Shown in pieces: positions 21,148 to 52,880 of a stretch of 64,000 nt of DNA (position 1 is the first letter of the stretch; every line of letters starts with the position of its first letter). This DNA comes from Eshraghiella crossota (GTDB taxonomy: Bacteria > Bacillota > Clostridia > Christensenellales > CAG-917): positions 5,394 to 69,393 of the forward strand of contig CAVANK010000001.1 of NCBI GenBank assembly GCA_963590075.1, read 5' to 3'. A model generated the notes under the pieces. The model did no database searches, was not told the origin of the DNA, and was given only the letters and a program-made list of their open reading frames with translations. Both the position numbers and the translations under genes were made by a program.

Positions 21148-21239
21148 AATTCACCTTATTTTGCTATTTTTTCCCAACTAGATTTCTGCATTTCATTATA
21201 TCTCTAACAAAAGTTTATAGCATTTACCCAAAAATCCAA

Positions 21240-21323
21240 TCTTCCTTATGTCATTGCGAGCGCAAGCGTGGCAGTAGACAATGGACTTGTGAGTTGTCTT
21301 TGCCATAGCGACGACTTTTGCTC
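21240..21323. repeat. mosaic intergenic repeat, locus B (modules shared with 23200-23680)
   Basis: CCTTATGTCATTGCGAG is the reverse complement of 23541-23557. The 50-nt module at 21266-21315 is the reverse complement (~85% by eye) of 23214-23263. Confidence 0.8.
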
Positions 21324-21373
21324 AATATCACTTGTGCTAGCACAAATATCACTGCACGAAGTGCAATATCACT
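21324..21373. repeat. array of 3 x AATATCACT separated by two unrelated perfect mini-hairpins
   Basis: AATATCACT-TGTGC.TA.GCACA-AATATCACT-GCAC.GAA.GTGC-AATATCACT. The last copy overlaps the spoVAD stop codon. Confidence 0.85.
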
Positions 21374-22565
21374 ATAACAATTGCTCAATCTCCAACGTTA
21401 CGGCATGCGCAATACCGGGGATCGTTTCCTTTTGAAGAGGCGTATCTTTGTTGAGCAATGCGCCCGTGGGCACGATAAGCACCCTTTTGAGTTCTCCGCG
21501 TTGCATTTTTTTGAGAATATAGCCGTTGAAAGCGGTATTTACGCACCCCGCACCCGATCCGCCTTGATACGTTTTTTGTTCGGGTGTAAAATAACTTGCA
21601 CCGCAATCCATATAGTATTTGGGCAAAATATACCCTTCTTTGGACAGCAAATATTCAAGCGTTTGCTTGCCGAAACGCCCCAAATCTCCCGTAAATATGC
21701 CGTCGTAATAGTCAAAGGAGCGTCCGCTTTCTTTGAAATGCGTAAGAATAGTATCGCAAGCGGCGGGAGCCATTGCCGCGCCCATATTTGCCTCGTCGTC
21801 TATACCGAGGTCTACGACTCGACCGAGCGTTCCGCCCGTGACTTTGACGCAGTAGGCGTTGGGTTTGAGATAGTCGTTGTTTTCCTTTTCAAAGTTGCTT
21901 TCTATGATATTTGACTTCTCTTTATTGATGATTTTCTTTTGTTTTTCAATGCTTTTCTTATATTTTTGGAGCGTTTTTTCGTCGATATTCATACCCTCGT
22001 CAATGGCAATGATATCGTCCTCGTACACTCTTTCGTTGATAAGCCTAGGTTTTTGACTGCTCAAAACAGTGCATCCCGCGCCCGTAACAGTCCATTGCGC
22101 GGTAGGCGTGCGTTGATTGCCGAGTTCAAGCGGAAAACGATATTGTCTTTCCGCCGAAGCAAAGTGGCTTGACGTCGAACATGTCACGTTATCGGCATAT
22201 CCGCCCGATATGAGCATTGCGCCGACGATTAAACTTTCGCTAAAAGTAGAGCAAGCGTTGTATAGTCCTAAAAACGCCGACGGAAAATTGCGCGCGGCAA
22301 GCGACGTTGCGGTCAATTCGTTGAGCAAGTCCCCGCCTAGCATTATGTCGATATCCTCTCTTTTAAGTCCCGCTTTTTTGATTGCACCGCTTACGGCGTC
22401 TCGTTGCATCTTGCTTTCGCACTTCTCGTAGGACTTTTCGCACCACAAATCGTTGTCGAGCACGATATCGAAACAATTGCCGAAATTGCCGTCACCCTCT
22501 TTCGGACCTACGATGGTAAATCCGCTCTTTATATACACGGGTTTTGAAATCTCAAAAGTTCGCAT
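21372..22565 (-). CDS. spoVAD: stage V sporulation protein AD (thiolase-like), with internal K/E/N-rich insert
   Basis: SpoVAD N-terminus (SGFTIVGPKEGDG). Start trimmed to the ATG at 22565, 9 nt after the spoVAC stop; the ORF track extends to 22667. Confidence 0.9.
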   Translation of the reverse strand: MRTFEISKPVYIKSGFTIVGPKEGDGNFGNCFDIVLDNDLWCEKSYEKCESKMQRDAVSGAIKKAGLKREDIDIMLGGDLLNELTATSLAARNFPSAFLGLYNACSTFSESLIVGAMLISGGYADNVTCSTSSHFASAERQYRFPLELGNQRTPTAQWTVTGAGCTVLSSQKPRLINERVYEDDIIAIDEGMNIDEKTLQKYKKSIEKQKKIINKEKSNIIESNFEKENNDYLKPNAYCVKVTGGTLGRVVDLGIDDEANMGAAMAPAACDTILTHFKESGRSFDYYDGIFTGDLGRFGKQTLEYLLSKEGYILPKYYMDCGASYFTPEQKTYQGGSGAGCVNTAFNGYILKKMQRGELKRVLIVPTGALLNKDTPLQKETIPGIAHAVTLEIEQLL

Positions 22566-22573
22566 TTTGCACC

Positions 22574-23014
22574 TCACATCACAAAATAGCCGATAAAGCC
22601 GACCACAAAACTTGCCACCTCGCCGAAAACGATAATAGGACCTGCGATGACGAACATCTTTGCGCATACACCGAAGAACACACCCTCACGGTTGTATTCC
22701 ATTGCGGGTGAAACCACGGAGTTTGCAAATCCCGTGATGGGGATAATCGAGCCACCGCCCGCGAAATGCCCCAGTTTGTCGTAAAATCCGAGCGCGGTGA
22801 AAAGGCTCCCGAGGAAAATCATTACGCAACTTTCCCACGTCGCGACGTCCTTTTTGCTCATATCCTCAAAAATGAGTTTGACGATATCTCCCACGCCCTC
22901 ACCGATACAACAAATAATTCCGCCCACGAGAAAAGCGGCGAACAGCGTGCGCACCATAGGAGACTTGGGAGCGTTGTCTTTTACGTACTTTTGATACTCT
23001 TTCCTATCTAACAT
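22574..23014 (-). CDS. spoVAC: stage V sporulation protein AC
   Basis: 146 aa, 4-TM SpoVAC pattern (GGSIIPITGFANSV). AGGA RBS. Confidence 0.9.
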   Translation of the reverse strand: MLDRKEYQKYVKDNAPKSPMVRTLFAAFLVGGIICCIGEGVGDIVKLIFEDMSKKDVATWESCVMIFLGSLFTALGFYDKLGHFAGGGSIIPITGFANSVVSPAMEYNREGVFFGVCAKMFVIAGPIIVFGEVASFVVGFIGYFVM

Positions 23015-23204
23015 ACATCGTCCTTTTTTGCGCCCTTATCGACCTTTTTAGCGGAATTTTCAACGTCGAAAAGAAGGTCTTGCCTTACCCCCTCAACGTT
23101 GGGATTATTCTTGAAATAAACCTCTTTATCTTCGACGTTTTTGGAAAAGAGCGCGTCCATACGGCATAATATTTGCCACAAATCGCGCTTTTTAATCATC
23201 TAAA

Positions 23205-23580
23205 CGAACAAATGACGTCGCTGTGGAAAAGACAACTCACCAGTTCATTGTCTAACGCCACGCTAGCCTTATTGTTCTTAACCAAGCAACCAGTTGCTCA
23301 AACGGCATCGCGGTGATGACAACAAACGCATTTGTTGCCATAAACCGCATTTGTTCTCGCAACTACTACCGCACAGCCAATCTTCGCTATCAGTTCAAGC
23401 AGGAATAAATAATCTTTCCACAGTTTCGCAAGATTGTCTGTTTGGTGTGAATTGGATAAAAACTTAATCCACAGTTTCGCTATATCGCTTGCTTGGTGTG
23501 TGCGCCTTCGGCTAGATTGCCACGTCGCAATATTCATTGCTCCTCGCAATGACATAAGGAAGATTGAAATATTCCGCAAC
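23205..23580. repeat. mosaic intergenic repeat, locus C (between sigF and spoVAC)
   Basis: Shares modules with loci B, D, E, F and G (see findings). Has an internal duplication of CCACAGTTTCGC...TTGGTG. Many short perfect hairpins. Confidence 0.8.
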
Positions 23581-23675
23581 TTGCGCCGACGGCGCAAATA
23601 TCACTTTTAGCCTTAGGCTAAAAATATCACTGTTGCGGTAGCAACAATATCACTTGCCGAATGGCAAATATCACT
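23581..23675. repeat. array of 4 hairpin + (A)ATATCACT units
   Basis: TTGCGCC.GAC.GGCGCAA-ATATCACT, TTTAGCC.TTA.GGCTAAA-AATATCACT, GTTGC.GGTA.GCAAC-AATATCACT, TGCC.GAAT.GGCA-AATATCACT. The array ends 6 nt from the sigF stop codon. Confidence 0.85.
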
Positions 23676-23681
23676 CTTAAT

Positions 23682-24398
23682 TTATTCTTGACTTAACTTT
23701 TCCTTCAACTTTTGCAACACTTTGCCCTCTATTCTGCTCACTTGCACTTGCGATACGCCAAGTTCCGTTGCAATCTCACTTTGCGTTTTGTCTCTGAAAT
23801 AGCGCATAATTATCACTTTTTTCTCACGCGGCGGAAGTTCCTTTATAAAATCGCGGAGCATAATCTTGTCCAAATCCTCGTCGGGAGAATTGTCTCCGAC
23901 GATTTTATCCCCGATTTGCCCCTCGTCGTCTCCGATTGGTTGCGACAAGGATATCAGATAATGCGTAGCATCCATTGCAAACACCACTTCTTGCGCCTCT
24001 ACGCCGAGTTCCGCGGCGATTTGCTCAACGTCGGGTTCGGGTTTTCCCGCCTTTACGGTCTCGTCGATATACACGTTTATGCGCATTGCAAGCGTTTTCG
24101 TCCATCTCGACACCTTGATTGCTCCGTCGTCGCGCAGAAAACGCTTGATTTCACCGCTTATCATGGGAACGGCGTACGTTGAAAATCTGACGCCGTACTC
24201 GACGTCAAAATTTTGCACCGCTTTGACGAGCCCCATCGCGCCCAACTGCATCAAATCGTCGTATTCCAAGCGCCCCTTAAAACGCTTTACGATAGATTTT
24301 ATAAGCGGAATATTTTCTTCTATCAATTTCTCTTTGGCGTCGTCGTCACCCTCTCTTGCGCGCTTGATAAGCGCAACGGTGGTTTGATGGTCTAACAT
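23682..24398 (-). CDS. sigF: RNA polymerase sporulation sigma factor SigF
   Basis: Sigma-70 regions 2-4 (FSTYAVPMISGEIKRFLRDDG, GVSQVQVSRIE). Third gene of the spoIIA operon. The start at 24398 is preferred over the ORF-track start at 24428. Confidence 0.9.
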   Translation of the reverse strand: MLDHQTTVALIKRAREGDDDAKEKLIEENIPLIKSIVKRFKGRLEYDDLMQLGAMGLVKAVQNFDVEYGVRFSTYAVPMISGEIKRFLRDDGAIKVSRWTKTLAMRINVYIDETVKAGKPEPDVEQIAAELGVEAQEVVFAMDATHYLISLSQPIGDDEGQIGDKIVGDNSPDEDLDKIMLRDFIKELPPREKKVIIMRYFRDKTQSEIATELGVSQVQVSRIEGKVLQKLKEKLSQE

Positions 24399-24817
24399 CC
24401 CTTTATAACCTTTTTCATACGCACGCACGTGCCTTCACCGACGGCTGAAGTTACGCTCATCTCGTCCATAAATGTCTCGATTATGGTAAATCCCATACCG
24501 CTACGCTCTTCGTCGGGCGCGGTGGTGAAAAACGGCTCGATTGCCTCTTTTACGTCGGCAATACCCTTTCCGAAGTCACGCACGACTACTTCAAGCACGT
24601 TATCTTCCGTTTTGCACTCGATTTGCACTACGCCGTCGCTACCCGAGTATGCATGCACGACGCAGTTGGTAACCGCTTCGCTAACGGCAGTCTTAATATC
24701 GTTGATTTCCTCTATCGTCGGGTTGCACTGCACCGCAAAACTCGCAACGACGTTTCGCGCAAACGCCTCGTTCTCGCTTGTGGCAAGCAATTTCATATCA
24801 AAATAGTTCATACTCAC
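24392..24817 (-). CDS. spoIIAB: anti-sigma F factor (serine kinase) SpoIIAB
   Basis: 141 aa, HATPase_c motifs (EAVTNCVVHAY, DFGKGI, SGMGFTI). Confidence 0.9.
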   Translation of the reverse strand: MSMNYFDMKLLATSENEAFARNVVASFAVQCNPTIEEINDIKTAVSEAVTNCVVHAYSGSDGVVQIECKTEDNVLEVVVRDFGKGIADVKEAIEPFFTTAPDEERSGMGFTIIETFMDEMSVTSAVGEGTCVRMKKVIKGC

Positions 24818-25325: not shown

Positions 25326-25403
25326 CGGGGTGTAGCGCAGTTTGGCTAGCGCGTCTGATTTGGGTTCAGAAGGTCGGGAGTTCGAATCTCTTCACCCCGA
25401 CCA
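25326..25403 (+). tRNA. tRNA-Pro (anticodon TGG)
   Basis: Cloverleaf read by eye: acceptor CGGGGTG/CACCCCG, anticodon loop TTTGGGT, T-loop GGTTCGAAT-like, encoded CCA. Confidence 0.9.
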
Positions 25404-25428
25404 CGAACACACTCACACACGATGATTC

Positions 25429-25505
25429 GGGCCTTTAGCTCAGTTGGTTAGAGCAGTCGGCTCATAACCGATCGGTCCGCGGTTCGAGTCCGTGAAGGCC
25501 CACCA
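25429..25505 (+). tRNA. tRNA with CAT anticodon (elongator Met or lysidine-modified Ile2)
   Basis: Acceptor GGGCCTT/AAGGCCC, anticodon loop CTCATAA, encoded CCA. I cannot distinguish Met from Ile2 by eye. Confidence 0.85.
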
Positions 25506-25524
25506 TAAATAAAAAAATTTGTTT

Positions 25525-25601
25525 GGCCCGGTAGTACAGTTGGTTAGTACGCCAGCCTGTCACGCTGGAGGTCAGGGGTTCGAGCCCCCTCCGGGTCGCC
25601 A
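25525..25601 (+). tRNA. tRNA-Asp (anticodon GTC)
   Basis: Acceptor GGCCCGG/CCGGGTC, anticodon loop CTGTCAC, encoded CCA. Confidence 0.9.
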
Positions 25602-25606
25602 TCCAA

Positions 25607-25640
25607 ATATGTGGCAGTGACAACCGTCACTGCCATATAT
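25607..25640 (+). other. strong hairpin in the spacer between tRNA-Asp and tRNA-Phe
   Basis: TGGCAGTGAC-AACC-GTCACTGCCA extended by A/T pairs. No T-run follows. Confidence 0.6.
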
Positions 25641-25677
25641 CTAAAAAAGGGATTTCTTCCCTACCAAGCTTTTATAT

Positions 25678-25753
25678 GCCTCGGTAGCTCAGGTGGTAGA
25701 GCAAGGGACTGAAAATCCCTGTGTCGGTGGTTCGAGTCCGCCCCGAGGCACCA
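25678..25753 (+). tRNA. tRNA-Phe (anticodon GAA)
   Basis: Acceptor GCCTCGG/CCGAGGC, anticodon loop CTGAAAA, encoded CCA. Confidence 0.9.
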
Positions 25754-25765
25754 ACAACTGAATAC

Positions 25766-25841
25766 GCTGGTGTAGCTCAATAGGCAGAGCAACTGATTTG
25801 TAATCAGTAGGTTGTTGGTTCGATTCCGATCACCAGCTCCA
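25766..25841 (+). tRNA. tRNA-Thr (anticodon TGT)
   Basis: Acceptor GCTGGTG/CACCAGC, anticodon loop TTTGTAA, encoded CCA. Confidence 0.9.
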
Positions 25842-25844
25842 TAC

Positions 25845-25929
<85 letters not shown>

Positions 25930-25984: not shown

Positions 25985-26195
25985 GACAGTATTTTTTTGG
26001 TACTACCGCAAGCAAAGAGAGACGCAAGCGCGTAGCATTTGCGGAAATCGTGCGTAGCGGACATAGTAAACAAAAAAGACACGCAGTGTCCCGTGCAACG
26101 CACGGTGTGCGACAGCACTATTTGTTTGCGTAGACGGCACAACAATACCGCAATTTCGCAAGATTGTCTGTTTGGTGCGCCTTACGGCGTATTTT
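25985..26195. repeat. mosaic intergenic repeat, locus D (downstream of the tRNA operon)
   Basis: Starts with TACTACCGCA as in loci C and E. The 24 nt at 26154-26177 are identical to 23424-23447. Confidence 0.7.
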
Positions 26196-26830: not shown

Positions 26831-26859
26831 TTGACGTTTTACGCATAGTTTGATACAAT
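26831..26859 (+). promoter_or_regulatory. sigma-A-type promoter of the recombinase gene
   Basis: TTGACG, 17 nt, TACAAT. The -35 overlaps the second of two GATATATTG direct repeats (26812-26820, 26825-26833). Confidence 0.5.
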
Positions 26860-26888
26860 TATCTTATCCAATCACGCGAGGAAAATTT

Positions 26889-27962
26889 ATGACAAACTAT
26901 TTCACCGAAAGGGACAAATACCTTGCAAAGCGTTTGCGCGTTTTGAGAGACCAACTTCCAGAGTTTTGCGAGGAGTTTTTTGTGGGTATCGAACCGCAGA
27001 CTTCACCGCTTACGAGGCTCAATTATGCGTACGATTTGCGCATATTCTTTGACTATTTGCTCAAAAACGTGCGTGCTTTCAGAGATTATAAGGACGTTTA
27101 CGATTTCGTCGTAGAGGATTTGTCAAAAATCACTCTCGGCAACTTGGAAGCATACGTGGAATACCTCTCTTATTACGAGTTTGAAGGCAAAGAATACACC
27201 AACGCCGAGAAAGGCAAAGCGCGCAAACTTTCCACTATCCGCACCTTTTTCAAGTACTATTTCAATCACGACCGTATTCCGTCCAACGTATCGGCAAAAC
27301 TCACTATGCCCAAACTTCACGACAAGGACATTATCCGCCTTGAAAAAAAGGAAGTCGAACGCATACTCGACGCGGCGGAAACGGGCAACGGTATGACGGA
27401 ACATCAGCGCAAAATTCAACGCAACACTCGTGCGCGCGATTACGCAATCGTGACGTTGCTTTTGGGTACGGGCATACGTGTCAGTGAGTGCGTGGGGCTC
27501 AATCTCAACGATATAGATTTTGAGACAAACGCCTTCACTGTCACTCGAAAAGGCGGAAATCAAGCCATTTTGTACTTCGGAGACGAAGTTCGCGACGCAC
27601 TTTTGACCTATATCGACACCGAGCGCAAGGCACTTATAGACAGATGTCAAAAGATAAACACGGGAGACAACGACGCGCTGTTCTTGTCGCTACAAGTCAA
27701 GCGTATTTGCGTGCGTGCGGTGGAAAACATCGTCAAAAAGTACGCTCAAACCGCCGCTCCGCTCAAAAAAATATCTCCGCACAAACTTCGTAGCACGTAC
27801 GGAACGAACCTATACCGCGCCACGGGTGATATATATCTCGTTGCCGACGTATTGGGACACCGAGACGTCAACACCACAAAAAAACACTACGCCGCAATCG
27901 AGGAAGATCACCGCAAACTTGCCGCAAAGGTAGTCAAACTTCGTAGCAACGACGACGATTAA
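26889..27962 (+). CDS. tyrosine site-specific recombinase (XerC/XerD/phage-integrase family)
   Basis: 357 aa from the ATG at 26889 (GAGGA RBS). N-terminal SAM-like domain. Catalytic R (TGIRVSE), HxxR (HKLRST), H...Y (GHRDVNTTKKHY). Confidence 0.85.
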   Translation: MTNYFTERDKYLAKRLRVLRDQLPEFCEEFFVGIEPQTSPLTRLNYAYDLRIFFDYLLKNVRAFRDYKDVYDFVVEDLSKITLGNLEAYVEYLSYYEFEGKEYTNAEKGKARKLSTIRTFFKYYFNHDRIPSNVSAKLTMPKLHDKDIIRLEKKEVERILDAAETGNGMTEHQRKIQRNTRARDYAIVTLLLGTGIRVSECVGLNLNDIDFETNAFTVTRKGGNQAILYFGDEVRDALLTYIDTERKALIDRCQKINTGDNDALFLSLQVKRICVRAVENIVKKYAQTAAPLKKISPHKLRSTYGTNLYRATGDIYLVADVLGHRDVNTTKKHYAAIEEDHRKLAAKVVKLRSNDDD

Positions 27963-30309: not shown

Positions 30310-30525
30310 TTTATTGCTCTACTACCGCGCAACCGATACACGCTATCAGTTCGTGCAAGGATAAAACTCCCGCCACAGTTGCGCTATATCGCTTGCTTGG
30401 TGTTTCGGCTACCGCCTAAATTGCCACGCTACCGCTCGCAATGATATGGAATATTCCACTTGTCATTCCGAGGAGCAACGATAGTTGCACCGTGGGAATC
30501 CAGCGTAGCGCAAAAAATATCACTA
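30310..30525. repeat. mosaic intergenic repeat, locus E (upstream of the tRNA-Trp promoter)
   Basis: Collinear with 23360-23560. The 31 nt at 30373-30403 match 23469-23499 with 1 mismatch. Long hairpin at 30435-30472 around the palindrome GGAATATTCC. Ends with a single AATATCACT (30516-30524). Confidence 0.8.
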
Positions 30526-30612: not shown

Positions 30613-30687
30613 AGGGGAGTGGCTCAACGGTAGAGCAACGGTCTCCAAAACCGTTGGTTGCGTGTTCGAATCGCGTCTCCCCTGCCA
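30613..30687 (+). tRNA. tRNA-Trp (anticodon CCA)
   Basis: Acceptor AGGGGAG/CTCCCCT, anticodon loop CTCCAAA, T-loop TTCGAAT, encoded CCA. Confidence 0.9.
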
Positions 30688-52578: not shown

Positions 52579-52880
52579 CTCCGCAACTGCGCCGTCGGCG
52601 CACAAACCGAGCAAGAGATATATCAAGACTTGTGTAAAAGTATCGTGAAATATTCCATCAGCGCACGCAGTGCGCCTAACGGCTCTCGTAGACAGGCGGA
52701 GCCGTAGTTTATAACTCCACAAAGAGTTGTTGTGAGCATCAACTTTCTATCCGAGCAACCGCCGAGCCGTCTCAAAGTTGCGAGACCTTACGCACAAAAG
52801 CAATGCTCCGATTGCTTTTGTGTAGGACGTTTGCGCCTAAATATGTGTCAAGTTATCTCGTAGAGATAAGTGACACGTGT
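52579..52880. repeat. mosaic intergenic repeat / hairpin cluster, locus G (between nrdR and ylmC)
   Basis: CTCCGCAACTGCGCCGTCGGCGCA resembles 23571-23597. Perfect hairpins at 52588-52602, 52661-52675, 52679-52705 and 52794-52821 (11-bp stem), and an imperfect one at 52845-52876. Confidence 0.7.

Follow-up and report, generated by a model that had tools for sequence, protein, structure and literature searches.

A hairpin array behind sigF in a gut Clostridial genome as a divergent, Gut-1-type member of a dispersed repeat family

The DNA considered here, a window of 64,000 nt from Eshraghiella crossota, carries an array of four small hairpins directly behind sigF. Judged by sequence and by its fit to a structural model, this array proves to be a divergent, single-array copy of the dispersed hairpin-array repeat represented by Gut-1 (Rfam RF01706), scoring below the curated threshold of that family. 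Gut-1 itself is the three-hairpin core of a dispersed, modular family of intergenic hairpin arrays in gut Clostridia. The array is not ancestral at the spoIIA–spoVA junction but arrived there as part of a mosaic insertion, together with other short repeat modules, and gain, loss and hairpin turnover occur between near relatives. With moderate confidence, we regard it as a dispersed, insertion-polymorphic and structured intergenic repeat, similar to the repetitive extragenic palindromic (REP) elements and bacterial interspersed mosaic elements (BIMEs), that would act as a hairpin barrier on the upstream mRNA.

On the plus strand, positions 23581-23675 consist of a hairpin followed by the 9-nt linker AATATCACT, four times over. 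The 8-mer cores begin at 23598, 23624, 23647 and 23668, with periods of 26, 23 and 21 nt, exactly as described in the initial annotation of this region, which had also placed the array end 6 nt from the sigF stop codon (23675 against 23682-23684). In the sense of sigF, the linker reads AGUGAUAUU, and the distal end of the array is formed by a terminal motif (Table 1). The corresponding end, AGTTGYGGAATATT, likewise follows the fourth hairpin in the loci L040, L044 and L105. Because these share the form of four units plus terminal motif, the sigF array is, by its sequence, a complete member of a single-array subfamily. Composition predicts 0.89 copies of the word ATATCACT in the window; there are 10, a number that none of 100 shuffles reached, and seven of the ten fall in two arrays, the second of which lies behind spoVAD, where the stop codon TAG (21372-21374) overlaps the first linker. 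The arrangement is thus real and not a product of chance.

The annotation had assigned this architecture to no described repeat class; Gut-1, however, matches both arrays. The Gut-1 model has three hairpins, whose base pairs run into RUGAnAU linkers so that connectors of 3 nt are left (RF01706; PMC2864571). At least three hairpins on such linkers, with stem bases supplied by the AU...GU of the linker, are also found in the sigF array. Both matches lie on the gene-sense strand and span the full model, the sigF array being aligned to model positions 1-77. At gathering thresholds, Rfam reports only tRNAs in the window, and both arrays stay under the Gut-1 gathering score of 50 bits, which related arrays exceed in L026 (74 bits), L009 (54.4), L044 (52.7) and L073 (50.9). 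The covariation that characterises Gut-1 is present in a set of 42 related full elements. The shared features are thus consecutive covarying hairpins, conserved RUGAnAU linkers, stems extended by A-U and U.G pairs, 3-nt connectors and occurrence in gut Clostridia. In contrast to the model, the sigF array has four hairpins and a terminal AGUUGCGGAAUAUU, and the window copies lie within an operon directly after stop codons.

Gut-1 was derived from environmental sequences of the human gut, with 43 representatives and no sequenced organism, and was classed as a probable non-coding RNA on the basis of covariation (PMC2864571). The published description assigns it no function, host or genomic behaviour. 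Its seed alignment already contains members with the linker GUGAUAUU that carry AAUAUCAC arrays in their flanks (PMC2864571). On the seed contig BAAZ01000130.1 (1864-3060), four members follow each other at 240-nt intervals, so whole elements can be tandemly amplified. Beyond Weinberg 2010, the literature searched yielded nothing relevant on the 9-mer or on hairpin repeats of Clostridia, and nothing later on Gut-1. The architecture itself is therefore already described, in Rfam and in Weinberg 2010.

The extent of the family was explored by scanning one genome per species for three exact copies of AATATCACT spaced 8-24 nt apart. At least 118 stretches matched. Among the matches listed, 117 belong to metagenome-assembled genomes (MAGs) of Clostridia that inhabit the guts of humans, ruminants and deer, among them Acutalibacteraceae, Oscillospiraceae, Christensenellaceae, Faecousia and Ruminococcus; the remaining match, in Arcicella, is an unrelated tandem repeat. 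Many of the listed arrays sit at contig ends, and the behaviour of the motif as a dispersed repeat explains why assemblies of carrier genomes break at such sites. The flanks of the seeded loci contain about 16 further arrays per Mb. When the distinct spacers between exact 9-mers of the listed matches were tested for end-to-end pairing with loops of up to 5 nt, 175 of 243 (72%) were perfect hairpins, against 0.8% after shuffling. A C-G pair closes the loop in 153 of these 175, and the loops on the AATATCACT strand are mostly GAA, GCA, GTA, GAAA, GCAA or GTAA. Hairpin spacers are 7-17 nt long, giving centre-to-centre linker spacings of 16-26 bp. A single genome can contain variants of the linker side by side (AATATAACT; in L073, AACATCATT/AACGATGTT).

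The same pattern gave 29 matches in viral contigs. Among the 23 listed with at least two spacers, a single hairpin array was found (L129), and the others were ordinary tandem repeats (21) or non-palindromic pairs (L141, L146). As nearly all viral matches listed are plain tandem repeats, the hairpin arrays are a property of this bacterial group and not of the search pattern. A blastn search of plasmids gave no match, and an origin from phages or plasmids was rejected on these two results.

Most of the ordering of the family becomes visible in its canonical element, which is 169-179 nt long (about 173 nt) and is composed of two divergent arrays, as opposed to the single-array window copies. Its order is always (AGTGATATT-hairpin)x4, centre, (AATATCACT-hairpin)x3-4, and the reverse order was never found. 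The centre, AGTT...GGCGAATAT, has its counterpart in the terminal motif of the single-array copies, and the two halves match the Gut-1 model on opposite strands. In the canonical copies inspected, a terminator or a tRNA precedes the element, and the right end abuts a good -35/-10 promoter, even supplying its first T. The half with the 7-nt GCGAAGC hairpin was used to orient the elements. Of 44 oriented elements, 40 have an upstream gene whose 3' end faces them; the gene on the downstream side runs in the same direction in 21 and is convergent in 16, and a position between divergent genes was seen once. When 668 flanking open reading frames (ORFs) were clustered all against all, no protein family proved recurrent beside the arrays. 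A promoter in the centre of the element was considered and rejected by inspection, since TATAAT, TAGAAT or TAAAAT occurs there without a usable -35 hexamer.

An alignment of 42 elements shows linkers that are invariant or nearly so, and hairpin positions that each keep their identity through compensatory changes (for example, GAAACC/GGTTTC versus GAAGCC/GGCTTC). In this alignment, 97.5% of the cells are paired and 22 of 43 pairs change on both sides. None of 500 shuffles reached the observed values, and slid controls were paired in 36-54%. Together with strain differences that fall mostly in loops, this covariation bears out the proposal that structure is maintained without conservation of the stem sequence. 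The related claim that the stems are unrelated yet self-complementary holds within the sigF array, where they have no common sequence, but not across the family, where they form recurring, position-specific types; in the single-array subfamily, these types recur in different orders. To call the architecture the inverse of REP logic was therefore an overstatement, as canonical positions keep their own covarying hairpin identity across species. The left half is also closed by a 12-bp long-range helix, GUUNUAUUCGCC with GGCGAAUAN'AAU, a pairing in competition with the outermost local hairpin. At the variable pair of this helix, 25 of 50 elements have A-T, 12 have T-A, 10 have C-G and 3 have a wobble, with no mismatch; the states track subfamilies, which implies few independent covariation events.

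Evidence on the strand points both ways: linker-base extension and folding energy favour the AGUGAUAUU strand, the loop sequences the other. The sense strand of the window array is predicted to fold at -44.5 kcal/mol (z = -5.4) and the antisense strand at -36.2 kcal/mol (z = -4.4), so that the AGUGAUAUU strand folds 8 kcal/mol better and gains A-U, U.G and U-A extensions into the linkers. Its centroid fold consists of four hairpins extended in this way. A consensus scan found no promoter or terminator specific to the window arrays. It did flag three units as terminator-like (23670-23651, 23649-23628 and 21368-21350), which have weak U-tracts at best, with tails such as AUAUUG and AUAUUU that begin after GUG. 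Two other structural ideas were dropped. A rod of stacked four-way junctions, built by pairing of left and right 9-mers, was rejected: AGTTATATT halves face AATATCACT halves, and variant positions of the nested partners yield 52 mismatches, one Watson-Crick pair and two G.U pairs, leaving the variants uncompensated. A kink-turn, a box C/D motif and anti-Shine-Dalgarno pairing of the linker likewise find no support in the sequence.

Comparison with relatives shows that the arrays come and go. L120, with 96% SpoVAD identity, has neither array: its sigF stop codon lies 31 nt from the small ORF before spoVAC, and its spoVAD–spoVAE spacer measures 18 nt, as it does in L121. The junctions are normally tight, in agreement with the annotation, and the window has about 488 and 209 extra nt at the two sites. 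Relatives with 83-88% SpoVAD identity are likewise devoid of arrays. L159, a 98% relative, carries an array at the identical spoVAD site, again with the stop TAG overlapping a linker, but its hairpins are TGCCTTCTGCA and CTCGCTATGCGAG instead of GCACTTCGTGC and TGTGCTAGCACA; its contig ends inside the array. The hairpin types of L159 and the window recur in other arrays of the single-array subfamily. Four assemblies with identical SigF share the same sigF array, in which three loop substitutions, one C>T change in a stem and zero linker changes have accumulated. The stem change (L160) affects the hairpin at 23582-23596 and leaves a T.G pair on the sense strand, the TTTAGCC-TTA-GGCTAAA and GTTGC-GGTA-GCAAC hairpins of L162 have loop substitutions only, and in L161 the distal mosaic module of the sigF-side insertion has been replaced. 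Elsewhere in the family, units are duplicated in tandem (L096, L013 and L104). A metagenome scan for empty and filled sites with a 21-mer from the sigF 3' end produced only three chance matches in unrelated DNA.

These properties can be compared with those of REP/BIME sequences, in which short palindromes, GC-rich and extragenic, likewise form mosaic arrays and are joined by linker motifs that are conserved. Like them, the arrays lie at gene 3' ends, between tandem or convergent genes, and are multi-copy and variable between strains. They differ in that the REP palindrome is conserved and alternates in orientation, whereas here the linker is conserved and the stems differ, with no palindrome shared among units; moreover, no association with RAYT genes was found for the AATATCACT arrays in 1.2 Mb of loci. 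REP elements stabilise upstream mRNA inside operons, including those of E. coli. By this analogy, the array probably acts as a barrier of hairpins, and the mRNA upstream of it would be stabilised or uncoupled. No terminator precedes it, so it should be transcribed with sigF unless a cryptic terminator intervenes. The transcript would then present four consecutive stable stem-loops with A-U, U.G and U-A extensions into the linkers and 3-nt GAU connectors. Such stem-loops would block 3'-to-5' exonucleases, and endonucleases could gain access to the single-stranded, AU-rich linkers. In either case, the sigF (or spoVAD) part of the message would be stabilised and uncoupled from the cistrons that follow. 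The arrays could change by slippage or recombination between identical 9-nt linkers, and the perfection of the stems could be due either to selection on structure or to template switching that corrects palindromes. An invariant linker would imply a trans-acting reader, either a nuclease/transposase or an RNA-binding protein.

The initial annotation had likewise considered an RNA 3'-end protection or processing module within a sporulation operon. The role at the 3' end is plausible, as the arrays are oriented in sense behind the upstream gene and fold better on that strand. The restriction to sporulation operons is not supported, because the 96% relative has no arrays and the family occurs beside unrelated genes in more than 100 species.

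Several points weigh against a barrier on upstream mRNA carried by a mobile repeat. Co-transcription with sigF and spoVAD, and the effect on stability, are what we infer rather than observe. Canonical arrays follow a terminator and may thus seldom be part of the upstream mRNA. The loops (C-GNA-G, GNRA) are best suited to the opposite, AATATCACT, strand, and single mispairs on that strand show no clear strand preference (32 G.T versus 19 A.C), which leaves room for a role as single-stranded or cruciform DNA. Position-specific hairpin identities kept across species indicate functional constraint rather than junk. Finally, no clear target-site duplication was seen, and no transposase or other mobilising gene is linked to the arrays in 1.2 Mb of loci.

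A role at the DNA level is rather unlikely but deserves serious attention. Each unit, in single-stranded or cruciform form, would be the substrate of an HUH/Y1-like nuclease or transposase that reads structure, and arrays would grow at the linker motif. C-GNA-G and GNNA loops, including GCGAAGC, form very stable DNA mini-hairpins, and such loops occupy the AATATCACT strand in both halves of the element. The high proportion of perfectly palindromic stems is also consistent with a DNA substrate, as are the hairpins that differ between 98% relatives at one site with linker and position kept, the recurrence of hairpin types in different orders, a copy with a flipped loop at 52588 and the breakage of assemblies at arrays. 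Free shuffling of units, however, is contradicted by whole 173-nt elements that keep position-specific hairpins across species, and the missing target-site duplication and linked transposase count here as well. A co-occurring HUH/RAYT/IS200-type gene, suggested by the annotation as a partner to look for, was represented by one distant match: tblastn with IS200, IS608 and RAYT sequences over the 1.2 Mb hit only L050 (207-437), 7 kb from an array. The hit belongs to a RAYT-like (IS200/Y1-type) ORF of 150 amino acids (L050 18-470). This ORF has GTAG-prefix REPs of its own (GGGCGAAC-NNNN-GTTCGCCC) inside and downstream of it (96-120, 1005-1050), distinct from the AATATCACT arrays of the same MAG; a RAYT/IS200 transposase as the mobiliser lacks support in the loci searched. 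Nor do the units look like footprints of hairpin opening, another early suggestion, as the stems are unrelated to their flanks, unlike the expectation for palindromic (P) nucleotides.

That the arrays are stand-alone genes for trans-acting small RNAs, as the Rfam classification would have it, seems unlikely. The linkers would then be displayed single-stranded, and an RNA-binding protein might, for instance, use the RNA as a platform or be titrated by it as by a sponge. The classification of Gut-1 as a likely non-coding RNA on covariation (Weinberg 2010; PMC2864571) fits this idea, and so do the strong stem covariation, the covarying 12-bp helix and the constant element length of 169-179 nt. 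The window copies, on the other hand, lie 0-6 nt past stop codons in an operon and have no promoter or terminator of their own, inspection of the canonical sequences revealed no consistent promoter, and the halves match the model on opposite strands. In addition, a genome contains many copies, and gain and loss of copies distinguish close relatives.

It is also improbable that Gut-1 is half of an unrecognised class of bipartite 173-nt elements, placed between transcription units and built of invariant 9-nt linkers and always perfect hairpins of free sequence, whose hairpins are turned over at a fixed site between near-identical strains by a dedicated enzyme that reads hairpin and linker. Arrays would in that event be built unit by unit at the linker motif, and a new mode of DNA mobility or array formation would follow.

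Double-stranded, iteron-like operator sites, bound by a repressor or partition-type protein that controls the adjacent promoter, are very unlikely. The 9-mer is invariant while everything between its copies varies, the two arrays face each other in inverted orientation, and strong promoters have their -35 hexamers directly beside the right array. TATCACT also fits the WATCACW heptads that are read by the omega protein of pSM19035. Nevertheless, the spacing of 16-26 bp lacks helical phasing, which also speaks against the iteron proposal in the annotation; it tracks hairpin length, and the sites are neither contiguous nor phased, as iterons and omega-type heptad operators would be. The intervening DNA is under selection for palindromes, which operator arrays do not need, the window copies lie behind stop codons and not at promoters, and linker variants coexist in one genome. 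A dedicated cis-regulatory module for the timing or ratio of sigF/spoVA expression, to which the position at two junctions of the spoIIA–spoVA cluster and the conservation in four strains with identical SigF might point, is hardly credible, being largely refuted by the empty orthologous sites at 96% and 83-88% SpoVAD identity and by family members that flank tRNAs and many unrelated genes in more than 100 species.

Other known systems share single features with the arrays. BOX elements of Streptococcus pneumoniae and Correia/NEMIS elements of Neisseria are likewise structured, non-coding repeats of intergenic regions, built from modules whose internal number varies; transcribed together with their neighbours, they can carry or abut promoters and terminators. 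They have no sequence similarity to the present family, and their modules are conserved over 45-60 nt, in contrast to a 9-nt linker with hairpins of free sequence. CRISPR arrays also alternate a short constant sequence with variable segments, and their content differs between close strains. Here, however, the constant part is unstructured and only 9 nt long, and what varies is a self-complementary hairpin of 7-17 nt, drawn from a limited set that recurs, in arrays of 3-4 units. CRISPR was rejected on the repeat length (9 nt against 23-50 nt), the palindromic spacers and the absence of recurring cas genes nearby. By inspection, integron attC sites and clusters of attC sites lacking integron integrases (CALIN) do not apply: the outer motifs AGTTATATT and AATATCACTAACT misfit R'' (RYYYAAC) and R' (GTTRRRY), and the GTT/AAC order is reversed. 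No IntI was seen, and the small-gene cassettes of L073 (below) are only a loose analogy. Type III toxin-antitoxin RNA was excluded because units differ and measure 16-26 nt, against identical units of about 34-36 nt, and because the genes downstream are spoVAC and spoVAE, not a toxin gene.

Gut-1 has been an orphan motif since 2010. It can now be placed in Acutalibacteraceae, Oscillospiraceae, Christensenellaceae and related MAGs from human and animal guts, and its core forms half of a larger, highly ordered element. The data suggest a family of repeats, not one RNA gene. To our knowledge, and within the searches made, the new points are the assignment of hosts, the bipartite architecture and the helix that closes it, the orientation bias towards gene ends and the gain, loss and hairpin replacement at the strain level, and the placement between terminator and promoter also goes beyond the published description. 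For annotation, the sigF–spoVA spacer should not be taken as evidence of sporulation regulation; sensible assays shift to mRNA stability, end mapping and the search for a factor that reads the linker.

Table 1. Coordinates of the arrays, their parts and associated features (window positions unless a locus is named).
Feature	Position	Strand	Remarks
Terminal motif, single-array subfamily	23568..23581	-	Minus-strand reading AGTTGCGGAATATT; distal array end in sigF sense
Hairpin TGCGCC-GAC-GGCGCA	23582..23596	-	Perfect palindrome; fourth in sigF sense
Linker AATATCACT	23597..23605	-	AGUGAUAUU in sigF sense
Hairpin TTTAGCC-TTA-GGCTAAA	23606..23622	-	Perfect palindrome
Linker AATATCACT	23623..23631	-	
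Hairpin GTTGC-GGTA-GCAAC	23632..23645	-	Perfect palindrome
Linker AATATCACT	23646..23654	-	
Hairpin TGCC-GAAT-GGCA	23655..23666	-	Perfect palindrome; first past sigF stop
Linker AATATCACT	23667..23675	-	6-nt gap to sigF stop codon (23682-23684)
sigF ORF	23682-24428	-	NCBIfam SigF/SigG-family sigma factor
Gut-1 (RF01706) match, sigF array	23593..23676	-	41.5 bits; E = 4.8e-6 (3-kb search), 1e-4 (whole window)
Second array	21324..21373	-	Three AATATCACT linkers, spacers TGTGCTAGCACA and GCACGAAGTGC
Second-array hairpin TGTGC-TA-GCACA	21333-21344	-	
Second-array hairpin GCAC-GAA-GTGC	21354-21364	-	
Gut-1 (RF01706) match, second array	21320-21388	-	39.1 bits; E = 4e-4 over whole window
Mosaic insertion, sigF stop to small ORF/spoVAC	23194..23681	-	About 488 nt; hairpin array and other short repeat modules
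Mosaic insertion, spoVAD to spoVAE	21163..21371	-	About 209 nt
Solitary AATATCACT	30516..30524	+	At the end of a related mosaic block (30373-30524) that precedes tRNA-Trp
Protein family of about 115-135 amino acids	L005 6128-6532; L036 2583-2966; L011 449-835; L084 2316-2666; L115 3344-3700		Beside the element

Modules of the sigF-side insertion recur in the window at 21237-21313, 26154-26177 and 30373-30478. The 15-mer hairpin of 23582-23596 reappears at 52588-52602 as TGCGCC-GTC-GGCGCA, again after ...CTCCGCAAC; relative to this flank, its loop is flipped (GTC versus GAC at 23588-23590). A second type of module has constant flanks and a variable internal hairpin, ...(A/T)AGCGTGGC-[hairpin]-GCCATAGCGACGAC..., at 21237-21313, 23216-23264 and 23543-23566. 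Its window copies hold AGACAA...TTGTCT, and the strain L161, with identical SigF, holds TTGGCAATACACA-TAA-GTGTGTGTTGCCA (about 1880-1960). A further module, CTTCCTTATGTCATTGCGAG with two ATTGC/GCAAT hairpins, is repeated at 21237-21260, 23543-23566 and 30461-30478.

Two observations concern other loci of the family. In L073 (3400-7700, minus strand), small unrelated genes for proteins of 94-265 amino acids, several of them membrane or lipoprotein-like, form a run in which they are separated by intergenic blocks of one kind, each leading from a conserved 3' tail GAAAATCCTCGGTTTTC... through a terminator and a hairpin array to a promoter and the ribosome-binding site AGGCGGTGA. Some blocks use other linker families, namely AACATCATT then AACGATGTT, or AACATCACT, and one has two array types in the order opposite to that of the AATATCACT family. 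In five loci (Table 1), a protein family with an N-terminus like MSNSILRDKAKDFAKNIV... is encoded directly beside the element; it may resemble the four-helix-bundle proteins of 23S rRNA intervening sequences.

Around sigF, NCBIfam names spoIIAA and spoIIAB before the gene and spoVAC, spoVAD, spoVAE and yunB after it. A small ORF at 23008-23199 overlaps the start of spoVAC, encodes 42-63 amino acids in relatives and has no family match. The start codon that gives the longest frame (23199) falls among the final nucleotides of the mosaic insertion, and translation therefore probably begins downstream of it. In SpoVAD (21372-22565), the match to its family models is split in two by an insert of some 70 residues (about 174-250) rich in Lys, Glu and Asn, which appears to be conserved in relatives, given their lengths of 396-400 amino acids. 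A cluster of six tRNA genes (Pro, Met, Asp, Phe, Thr and Tyr; 25326-25929) adjoins the spoIIA operon, tRNA-Trp (30613-30687) is preceded by a related mosaic block, and an XerC/D/S-like tyrosine recombinase is encoded nearby at 26850-27962.

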